From the IMG/VR virus record IMGVR_UViG_2681813321_000021: a DNA stretch of 21,512 nt; one strand, 5' to 3'. Made by a program: the position numbers and the translations under genes. Source of the DNA: a virus (lineage: Duplodnaviria > Heunggongvirae > Uroviricota > Caudoviricetes). How positions within the stretch are numbered: the first letter of the stretch is position 1; every line of letters starts with the position of its first letter. The notes beneath the pieces were generated by a model. It searched no databases and had not been told where the DNA came from. It was given only the letters and a program-made list of their open reading frames with translations. This document shows positions 14,021 to 15,251 of this stretch, in pieces.

Positions 14021-14353
14021 ATGGCATTAATCAAATGTCCTGAATGCCAGAAAGAGGTCAGCGATTCAGCATTATGTTGCCCTGCTTGTGGTAAACAACT
14101 GAAAAAACTTAAGCGTTCATTTTTTGGAAAACTCATTAAATGGGCTTTTATATTTTTTAATATTTTTATGATCTATACACTTTTAGTTGGACTAGGAGGC
14201 GCTGATGAAATAATAAACAATACCACATCCGATGCCGAAAAAGCTGGGGCAGTTATTGGTACGGGCTTAGGTTTAATTGCCATTGGAGGCTTATGGGTTA
14301 TTGGCGATATCATTATCGGAATTTTAGTATTTCTTACTAAACCAAAGGGATAA
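14021..14353 (+). CDS. Small membrane protein with N-terminal zinc ribbon and two predicted TM helices
   Basis: MALIKCPECQKEVSDSALCCPACG (CPxC...CPxCG), then two long hydrophobic Gly-rich segments. Strong AAGGAG RBS 11 bp upstream. Confidence 0.7.
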   Translation: MALIKCPECQKEVSDSALCCPACGKQLKKLKRSFFGKLIKWAFIFFNIFMIYTLLVGLGGADEIINNTTSDAEKAGAVIGTGLGLIAIGGLWVIGDIIIGILVFLTKPKG

Positions 14354-14357
14354 TAAA

Positions 14358-15251
14358 ATGAAAAATATGATTTTTTCTATAGGTGCATTATTTATATCAA
14401 TTAGTGTACTGCCTGTTCACGCAGCAACTGAACATAAGAATTTCAATGCAGTGCTCCAGTGCCGAGCGATAGAAAACAATAAAGACAGACTTTCTTGTTA
14501 CGATAAGTCAATACAACCGACTCGAACGAAAGTTGCTGACAAATTTGAAAGCAGGGATCAATGCCCTGATGAGAAAGATGATGACAAACGTTTATCTTGT
14601 TATGATCGTTTTTTTTCTCCAACATTTACTCCATCTGTAAACTCAAAATCTAAAACGGAAAAGCTAGTAACAACAGAGGCTCAGCAACCAAATCTTTCTG
14701 AAATATCTAAATGCCGAGCAGAAAATGATAAAGAAACCAGACTAAACTGCTACGATAAACTATTCCCACAGGATGAAGCTGTTCAATCTGAATCACAATT
14801 AGAGAAAGCCACAGATGCAGGAAAATGGCACACGTCCATTACTACATCGCCAATTGATGATTCGAAAAATGTAATTTTATCGTTAGAAAGTGATGATTAT
14901 ATCAGAACTCCATTTGGAGAAGCTGTTACTCCCACTCTGTTTATAGCTTGCCGAGAAAAGAAAACCGAAGTATTTCTTAGTTGGGATGTATATTTAGGCC
15001 TTGAACAAACCAGCATGCTGTATCGTCTTGATAAACAGAAAGCAGTTGAAAGAAACTGGCTAATATCTACAGATACAAAGGCTGTTTTTTATAAAGGTAA
15101 TGATATTGATTTCATAAGAAAACTTGCCAACTCACATAAAATGTACACAAAAATAACCCCCTATAATGAAAGCCCTGTAAGTGCAACTTTCAATTTAAGC
15201 GGCCTGTCAAATGCACTAAAACCGCTTCAAGATGCTTGTAACTGGAAATAG
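14358..15251 (+). CDS. Secreted/periplasmic protein of unknown function with three tandem Cys-containing repeats
   Basis: Signal peptide MKNMIFSIGALFISISVLPVHA followed by three repeats (QCRAIENNKDRLSCYDK, QCPDEKDDDKRLSCYDR, KCRAENDKETRLNCYDK) and a ~150-aa C-terminal domain. AAGGGA RBS; starts 4 bp after the upstream stop, so probably an operon. Confidence 0.7.
   Translation: MKNMIFSIGALFISISVLPVHAATEHKNFNAVLQCRAIENNKDRLSCYDKSIQPTRTKVADKFESRDQCPDEKDDDKRLSCYDRFFSPTFTPSVNSKSKTEKLVTTEAQQPNLSEISKCRAENDKETRLNCYDKLFPQDEAVQSESQLEKATDAGKWHTSITTSPIDDSKNVILSLESDDYIRTPFGEAVTPTLFIACREKKTEVFLSWDVYLGLEQTSMLYRLDKQKAVERNWLISTDTKAVFYKGNDIDFIRKLANSHKMYTKITPYNESPVSATFNLSGLSNALKPLQDACNWK

Follow-up and report, generated by a model that had tools for sequence, protein, structure and literature searches.

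Members of the VasI/TagO family (Pfam PF11319 VasI, formerly DUF3121) have been described as accessory factors of type VI secretion systems (T6SS), among them VCA0118 of Vibrio cholerae and ECs_0222, the VasI of the T6SS cluster of Escherichia coli O157 Sakai. VCA0118 has its effect on delivery and not on assembly or secretion (PMC3166118), and in a review of T6SS accessory factors from 2026 the function of TagO/VasI is entered as "Unknown". DrpB (YedR) is a 100-amino-acid (aa) divisome-associated protein with two transmembrane (TM) helices that in multicopy suppresses ftsEX defects, activates the Rcs phosphorelay via the periplasmic domain of RcsC, and induces Psp (PMC11709261 among the sources); a T89 mutant is the only point mutant reported to have lost Rcs activation (PMC11709261). 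Here we analyze two adjacent genes on the + strand of a 21,512-nucleotide stretch of DNA, virus record IMGVR_UViG_2681813321_000021 (the whole stretch is called the window below), in which these two families, both named yet functionally unsolved, come together. Gene 2 encodes a predicted secreted relative of VasI/TagO and gene 1 a zinc-ribbon protein with a DrpB-like membrane domain, and the pair is very probably an accessory (moron-type) cassette, self-contained, that belongs to a P2-like temperate phage and occupies its cargo slot, with ogr/hok on one side and the attachment site on the other.

The closest described systems each share something with the pair. T6SS VasI/TagO proteins such as VCA0118 and ECs_0222 (PF11319, TIGR03360) have the same family and order of elements as gene 2, namely signal peptide, hairpin, beta-sandwich and Cys-x-Trp, but gene 2 has three hairpins instead of one, sits in a phage cargo slot, is accompanied by a membrane partner, and scores below the T6SS equivalog cut-off. 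IalB (PDB 3dtd, PF06776) is 17% identical to gene 2, lacks the Cys hairpins and belongs to a different biological setting. The two-TM domain of DrpB is collinear with gene 1 from RSxxGKL to TRP(R/K); gene 1 differs from it in an extra N-terminal zinc ribbon, an identity of only ~23%, a different periplasmic turn and its location on a phage. SDIC4, from a Serratia defense island, is a two-gene anti-phage system found outside T6SS clusters, in which SDIC4B, which is small and secreted and whose fold is reported to be VasI-like, by itself protects E. coli 10-200-fold (bioRxiv 10.1101/2024.01.28.577318). Like our cassette it is an operon of two genes, the second of which encodes such a secreted protein; however, SDIC4A is a secreted protein of 150 aa whereas gene 1 encodes a zinc-ribbon membrane protein, and SDIC4 is associated with BrxR and defense islands whereas the pair is associated with P2 phages. 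With the SDIC4 sequences taken from the preprint's plasmid table, SDIC4B matched the gene 2 family profile with an hhalign probability of 0.4%, and neither SDIC4A nor SDIC4B had a Pfam match. We therefore rejected the idea that the pair is the SDIC4 system, sequence and partner type being unrelated, and keep the analogy. The pair belongs to Pfam VasI and is not a T6SS VasI equivalog, SDIC4 or DrpB proper.

The P2-like phage morons old, tin and Z/fun are likewise variable, compositionally foreign cassettes in a conserved backbone, and P2 hotspots have been described as reservoirs of anti-phage genes (PMC9122126; PMC13586616). The published P2/P4 hotspots are A-Q, the tail region, int-A and int-att; the pair instead occupies the ogr-att slot. 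Neither of these two papers mentions this slot, the two families or the pair (ogr, VasI and "type VI" occur in neither text, and TagO and "zinc ribbon" do not occur in PMC13586616). A VasI-family open reading frame was listed in 2019 as cargo of Citrobacter rodentium phage phiSM (PMC6456863). In our literature search no paper turned up that dealt with the zinc-ribbon partner or its homology to DrpB, with the varying number of hairpins, or with the ogr-att slot as a place where this module recurs. Phage T4 accomplishes superinfection exclusion with Imm and Sp, an inner-membrane and a periplasm-facing protein that block the entry of contractile-tailed phages. The likeness to our pair, a resident phage making an inner-membrane and a periplasmic protein, serves as a working analogy only; the T4 genes do not form an operon, T4 is not temperate, and no homology is to be expected.

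Location and layout of the cassette

The window derives from an E. coli chromosome. Its flk side is matched by every complete E. coli genome, and homology to K-12, which begins at 15386 (24 nt within the 5' end of pdxB), continues through flk, yfcJ, fabB and mnmC; K-12 itself has an empty 98-bp pdxB-flk spacer at this site. In a complete genome with the same insertion (99% identity) the other prophage end adjoins a P2-type integrase next to pdxB, and an 18-nt core, ATTTTC(A/C)TCAACAAGGAT, is common to both junctions (attL beside int, and attR). The prophage is P2-like (Q-P-O-N-M-L, tail genes, D, ogr), and its right end reads ogr, hok, a RES-gene cassette, gene 1, gene 2, a hairpin and attR, so that the pair is the last cargo. 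Phage genome P88_4B11 has the order D-ogr-hok-RES-zinc ribbon-VasI-[attP]-int with 99% protein identity to the window, and the pair is also found in phage records 500465-2, PhiR44_2, phiSM and 3LV2017. Since the attachment-site mapping and the P88_4B11 gene order agree, the pair lies inside the phage and not beside it, and the alternative that it is chromosomal and merely adjacent to a prophage is rejected by the mapping. A preliminary description of this DNA, made from the sequence alone, had put the pair next to a prophage end and beside toxin genes; the pair is in fact within the prophage, and of the neighboring toxin genes hok is intact while the RES gene is frameshifted in the window.

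The same description had suggested moron-type cargo, and this status is well supported. The K-12 site is empty, and a search of 5426 complete E. coli genomes detected the pair in 240 (~4%; three alleles, >99%, ~94% and ~91%), as compared with 1179 genomes that contain the ogr-hok segment at a coverage of at least 80% (1550 at any coverage). Sister prophages (L054-L056) have other small genes after hok in the same slot. Because of the difference between 240 and 1179 genomes and the alternative cargo, we regard the cassette as accessory and dispensable. Neither protein proved to be homologous to a characterized housekeeping family, and the locus is not conserved without a prophage in all relatives; the opposite outcomes had been named beforehand as telling against the proposal.

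The two genes are, as first described, AT-rich and tightly coupled. Their G+C content is 0.36 in both cases, versus 0.548 in the prophage body and 0.542 in the chromosomal flank; the TAA of gene 1 is separated by 4 nt from the ATG of gene 2, and each gene has a ribosome-binding sequence (AAGGAG for gene 1 and a weaker AAGGGA before the ATG of gene 2). The strong terminator-like structure noted downstream was also borne out: in a fold of 15255-15325 the hairpin at 15270-15310 has a dG of -35 kcal/mol (z = -9.7), and 0 of 200 shuffled sequences were equally stable. It is likely to be a bidirectional intrinsic terminator that closes the cassette; a simple terminator scan missed it because the U-run lies inside the 3' arm. 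A search of the whole window against Rfam matched no family. Coordinates of all features are collected in Table 1.

The two proteins

Gene 2 matches Pfam PF11319 with 91.5 bits (gathering cut-off 26.5; E 6.7e-26) over the entire model (1-184 of 184), in three stretches because the N-terminal motif is triplicated. It displays the traits of the family, being exported, with an N-terminal C-x8-RL-x-CYD, a beta-rich C-domain and a C-terminal Cys-x-Trp; it matches phrog_1848 at 1e-37, and RefSeq already names it TagO. The earlier view that this protein could not be assigned to a family is thus superseded, while its clean signal peptide was correctly recognized as such and is of the Sec type. Three repeats of the form C-x(8-11)-RL-x-CYD had been noted; three exact motifs are indeed present, but the spacing is x8 throughout. 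The protein has eight cysteines, which make four putative pairs, and AlphaFold2 (AF2) gives a predicted local distance difference test score (pLDDT) below 50 for aa 1-28. We predict from these sequence features a Sec-exported periplasmic protein, which in the model has three helical hairpins, probably disulfide-stapled, on flexible linkers ahead of an IalB/VasI-type beta-sandwich. A PDB sequence search with this protein returned chance-level matches only, and a BFVD fold search returned only uncharacterized phage proteins.

The hairpin number varies among relatives. Homologues of gene 2 (down to ~50% identity) come in three sizes, ~210, 250 and 297 aa, with one, two and three hairpins, respectively. 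In addition, the secreted proteins P0153, P0155, P0157 and P0159 consist only of tandem C-x8-(E/D)RL-x-C-(Y/F)-(D/N) hairpins (from a search of a representative library with the hairpin region, in which the low-complexity matches P0154 and P0158 were discarded). Since some proteins hold nothing but tandem copies, the Cys hairpin is an autonomous repeat module.

Family membership does not make gene 2 a T6SS component. Against TIGR03360, the T6SS VasI/TagO equivalog model, it scores 78.8 bits where the cut-off is 124.2; phage-borne and solo homologues score 35-78, and ECs_0222, to which gene 2 is 26% identical, scores 257.4. In a small context census of ~25 distinct loci none was within a T6SS cluster (beside clpV/vasH and tssA/tssM); the window and all related loci inspected were in P2-like prophages or at isolated chromosomal sites. 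A contig scan with one narrow peptide pattern gave just 20 loci. Equivalog score, context and the 26% identity together lead us to reject an orphan T6SS gene, and by these sequence comparisons gene 2 is a member of a divergent, phage-borne PF11319 subfamily and not a T6SS VasI equivalog.

Gene 1 had been described as a zinc-ribbon membrane protein, and it does have both a CPxC...CPxC ribbon, with Pfam zinc-ribbon models matching 24 of 25 homologues, and two hydrophobic helices. The helices span residues ~38-58 and 80-104 and are followed by an invariant T106-x-P-K; AF2 and hydropathy agree with the topology, which predicts a small inner-membrane protein with its N-terminal zinc ribbon and its C-terminus in the cytoplasm. 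It matches phrog_6586 at 2e-38, and the family is strongly conserved (73% mean column identity). The pair can no longer be called uncharacterized by family, as this protein, too, has a recognizable relative. The NCBIfam DrpB model NF038392 matches gene 1 at positions 2-84 of 86 with 18.7 bits (E 0.0016), short of its cut-off of 50, and several gene 1 homologues have precomputed matches to PF28000 (DrpB). We built alignments of the zinc-ribbon family and of DrpB homologues and compared them profile to profile with hhalign, which aligned residues 27-110 of the former with 9-93 of the latter (probability 91.9%, E 7e-7, 79 columns), that is, the entire two-helix domain. Invariant motifs coincide in the two families, RSxxGKLxxWxF preceding helix 1 and T(R/K)P(R/K) following helix 2, and DrpB T89 aligns with the invariant T106. 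Because of the profile-profile match and the coinciding motifs, gene 1 is best described as a DrpB paralogue that is carried by a phage and extended by a cytoplasmic zinc ribbon; judged by sequence, it is homologous to DrpB over the membrane domain yet outside the DrpB family proper, since it falls below the NCBIfam cut-off.

Distribution, constraint and neighboring features

The arrangement ogr-(hok)-zinc ribbon-VasI-attR recurs at other attachment sites, in Klebsiella prophages at yccJ-wrbA and fieF-pfkA, and in P2-like prophages of Enterobacter, Salmonella and Raoultella, in C. rodentium phage phiSM and in Klebsiella phages; throughout these loci the two genes are 4 nt apart or overlap. Nine E. 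coli copies of the pair are on plasmids, where they are still preceded by ogr and hok remnants. An ogr-hok-zinc ribbon-VasI fragment of the ~91% allele is present on plasmids of enterotoxigenic E. coli (ETEC) and in a few chromosomes (L003, L004); on plasmid p120899_146 (L003) it stands beside a group II intron and insertion sequence elements. The hosts of the cassette are commensal, environmental and plant-associated alike (Pectobacterium, Dickeya, Pantoea). Pairwise ratios of nonsynonymous to synonymous substitution (dN/dS), among E. coli alleles and versus Enterobacter and Raoultella, are 0.04-0.38 for gene 1 and 0.11-0.15 for gene 2, and the pair is under purifying selection.

Each gene is also found without the other. 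The 250-aa VasI variants have no zinc-ribbon partner and are inverted relative to the late genes (ogr/hok), with hok or a TM2-domain two-TM protein as neighbor; E. coli has such two-hairpin variants at its ytfP site, and Salmonella has them too (L011-L013, L030-L031). In Pantoea coffeiphila ogr is followed directly by VasI, with no zinc-ribbon gene between them. Conversely, a solo zinc-ribbon gene is conserved between cueR and copA in Pantoea and is present in Haemophilus paracuniculus, and on a metagenomic contig the zinc-ribbon gene precedes an unrelated secreted protein of 383 aa. The Pantoea solo homologue (L019-L022) is 70% identical to gene 1, and one of the genomes has a P2-like prophage inserted directly next to it; in Enterobacter mori (L033) the entire pair lies upstream of copA, the nearest 6 kb being free of phage genes. 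The Pantoea and E. mori copies suggest either a host gene captured by imprecise excision or domesticated prophage remnants.

More distant relatives of gene 2 occur in other settings. Its C-domain recurs in unrelated temperate phages, and homologues are found in phages of Brucella and Pasteurella; in Brucella phage BiPBO1 the repressor gene is followed after 9 nt by a VasI-like gene, and in Klebsiella phage ST11-VIM1phi8.1 another stands directly after the repressor gene. Distant VasI-like genes of Vibrio and Photobacterium were outside T6SS clusters in the loci inspected, and in Photobacterium phosphoreum (L027) a solo VasI-like gene adjoins a gene of the lysozyme-inhibitor family LprI. Distant loci of Caulobacter and other Proteobacteria have no zinc-ribbon gene, ogr or gpD.

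Several features of the surrounding prophage were also recorded. The att core overlaps the first pdxB codons, so that integration replaces the pdxB start, and the pdxB coding sequence of the lysogen is annotated 24 nt shorter (window 15320-15410; L006 5960-6200); GCGTGGACA-like repeats in both phage arms are probably Int arm-type sites. The RES cassette, 1.5 kb in length and flanked by inverted repeats of ~100 nt (12340-12439 and 13711-13811), is absent from otherwise collinear sister prophages. Relative to an intact 275-aa allele its RES gene (NAD+ phosphorylase toxin family) has lost one C in the C-run at 12883-12886, and no Xre-type antitoxin is annotated beside it. At the left of the window 1-2814 and 3127-5940 form a near-perfect tandem duplication (offset 3126, 4 mismatches) that takes in a gene for tail-fibre assembly, one for a Cin/Gin-type invertase (937-1623) and gpU, together with an alternative tail-fibre C-terminus and the 3' portion of the tape-measure gene; it may be genuine or an artefact of assembly.

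Table 1. Positions of the cassette, its parts and its neighbors in the window.
Feature	Position	Strand	Basis and remarks
ogr (P2 late activator)	11660..11920	+	last core phage gene before cargo
hok/gef-family toxin gene	12111..12251	+	co-travelling cargo, intact
RES-domain gene cassette	12325..13822	.	between hok and gene 1; RES gene 12667-13493
Candidate sigma-70 promoter, TTATCA-16-TAAAAT with TG	13939..13966	+	consensus scan; 55 nt 5' of gene 1
Shine-Dalgarno AAGGAG of gene 1	14006..14011	+	read from sequence; 9 nt 5' of ATG
Gene 1, 110 aa	14021..14353	+	C4 zinc ribbon aa 4-27 fused to DrpB(YedR)-like two-helix domain aa 27-110
Gene 2, 297 aa, predicted secreted VasI/TagO-family (PF11319) protein	14358..15251	+	Pfam
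Signal peptide of gene 2, aa 1-22	14358..14423	+	sequence, hydropathy; Sec-type; cleavage between VHA and AT, no lipobox
Cys hairpin motif 1, C35-x8-RL-x-C47-YD, aa 35-49	14460..14504	+	regular expression; AF2 helix-turn-helix aa 29-51
Cys hairpin motif 2, C69...C81, aa 69-83	14562..14606	+	regular expression, AF2; absent from 250-aa homologues
Cys hairpin motif 3, C119...C131, aa 119-133	14712..14756	+	copy common to all family members including T6SS VasI
C-terminal IalB-like beta-sandwich, aa 155-297	14820..15248	+	C198/C294 conserved
Perfect 19-bp hairpin, internal GC core then UUUUGU	15270..15310	+	fold of 15255-15325
attR core of P2-like prophage (ATTTTCCTCAACAAGGAT)	15387..15404	.	BLAST versus K-12; comparison with attL of NZ_CP148366.1

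Possible functions of the cassette

We tentatively favor, at somewhat less than an even chance, the idea that the cassette in a lysogen blocks incoming attack through the periplasm, as superinfection exclusion or defense, and it is reasonable to treat the pair as a candidate for envelope-level protection of the lysogen. The cassette would be expressed from the prophage and would alter the envelope of the lysogen, with the periplasmic VasI-like protein as the effector and the DrpB-like membrane protein as its anchor or modulator; a physical interaction of the two proteins and a protective phenotype are what we infer here. Superinfecting phages would be the likeliest target, possibly along with other contractile injection devices, and the block would fall at or before DNA entry rather than act as an intracellular abortive system. 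Expression in the lysogen is suggested by analogy, because homologues adjoin the repressor genes of BiPBO1 and ST11-VIM1phi8.1. The exclusion reading draws on the cargo slot in a defense-rich phage family, on these repressor-adjacent homologues and on SDIC4B, the one experimental precedent. The effect of VCA0118, which falls on delivery and not on assembly or secretion, fits a role in the periplasm as a contractile device passes through.

A number of observations weigh against exclusion. The SDIC4 precedent is a fold-level analogy reported by others, with no sequence relation detected, and PADLOC-DB 2.0.0 gave no match at E values up to 1 for the proteins of gene 1, gene 2 or the RES open reading frame. 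The promoter-consensus scan found no more sites than expected from shuffled sequence, so the site upstream of gene 1 is a candidate only. Solo zinc-ribbon genes and VasI genes without a zinc-ribbon partner indicate that the two proteins are separable and need not form an obligate pair. In the ~91% E. coli allele (chromosome and ETEC plasmids) gene 2 is frameshifted after the second hairpin, and some lineages have therefore lost gene 2. The C-terminal domain of gene 2 is strongly conserved, unlike an arms-race receptor mimic, which would be expected to evolve fast.

The homology of gene 1 to DrpB raises an alternative in which the prophage rewires envelope stress: like DrpB in multicopy, its DrpB-like protein would activate the Rcs phosphorelay and perhaps Psp, and the resulting capsule or colanic acid and reduced motility would give indirect protection from phages, T6SS attack and antimicrobials, with the VasI-like protein tuning or sensing in the periplasm. 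We consider this unlikely, although the match between the gene 1 membrane domain (aa 27-110) and DrpB (aa 9-93), the NCBIfam match at E 0.0016, the common motifs and the alignment of the Rcs-critical T89 with T106 all favor it, as does the strong conservation of the zinc-ribbon protein even where the VasI partner is missing, which suggests a conserved host target. The identity of gene 1 to DrpB is only ~23% and DrpB has no zinc ribbon; moreover, the activation of Rcs through the RcsC periplasmic domain and the induction of Psp are overexpression phenotypes of a protein whose physiological trigger is not known, no link between the VasI family and Rcs is known, and the homology could reflect a shared membrane scaffold alone. 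Lysogenic conversion related to the T6SS, in which gene 2 would boost host T6SS delivery like VCA0118 or shield the periplasm from T6SS spikes or effectors, is in our judgement distinctly unlikely. Gene 2 is a true PF11319 member with the architecture of T6SS VasI (hairpin, beta-domain, C-terminal C-x-W), VCA0118 is required for full killing and not for Hcp or VgrG secretion, tagO-containing T6SS clusters are present in many E. coli and Klebsiella hosts, and P2 tails and the T6SS are homologous machines. However, the score of gene 2 falls well below the equivalog cut-off that ECs_0222 far exceeds, its identity to the host TagO is low, the census turned up no T6SS cluster, and homologues occur in phages of hosts as distant as Brucella and Pasteurella.

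Two further explanations concern the host and the phage itself. An IalB-like secreted protein might aid contact of the lysogen with eukaryotic cells or surfaces, as IalB does in Bartonella invasion, making gene 2 a conversion gene next to att. P2-like phages do carry toxin cargo next to att, such as ctx in phiCTX and sopE in SopE-phi. PMC6456863 places the gene among the "virulence" cargo of C. rodentium phiSM; but that 2019 label was given by name only, the mechanism of IalB is itself not known, the protein has no secretion signal beyond Sec, and commensal, environmental and plant-associated hosts all harbor the cassette. We hold such a role to be quite improbable. Finally, the pair could serve the phage life cycle, in lysis timing, in passage of the tail tip during the phage's own infection, or in particle release. 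Its position directly after the tail/D/ogr late region in the same orientation would suit such a function, as would the kinship of VasI, T6SS and tails, and a DrpB-like protein could target the septum or the peptidoglycan machinery. Yet about four-fifths of closely related ogr-hok P2-like prophages do without the pair, which is compositionally foreign to the phage; the 250-aa variants run counter to the late genes, and in other phages the homologues stand beside the repressor gene. We regard a life-cycle role as very improbable.

To return to envelope-level exclusion, P2-like prophages are among the commonest in Enterobacteriaceae and their variable slots have already yielded many defense systems; the cassette is frequent in E. 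coli and in many Klebsiella, crosses genera and is absent from PADLOC-DB 2.0.0. It joins two named but poorly understood families, VasI/TagO and the Rcs-firing DrpB, and may represent a new exclusion system, from which a first functional clue for VasI outside the T6SS could follow. For these phage-borne genes the name given by RefSeq, "type VI secretion system-associated protein TagO", misleads. In its boldest form, which we think doubtful, the proposal is that the pair is a widespread, unrecognized immunity module of P2-like phages at the level of the envelope, in which contractile devices (heteroimmune myophages, tailocins, perhaps the T6SS) would be halted on their way across the periplasm by a VasI-type periplasmic protein that a DrpB-like membrane protein holds or regulates. 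If this were true, it would provide a first mechanistic handle on VasI in type VI secretion and on the link between DrpB-like proteins and RcsC.

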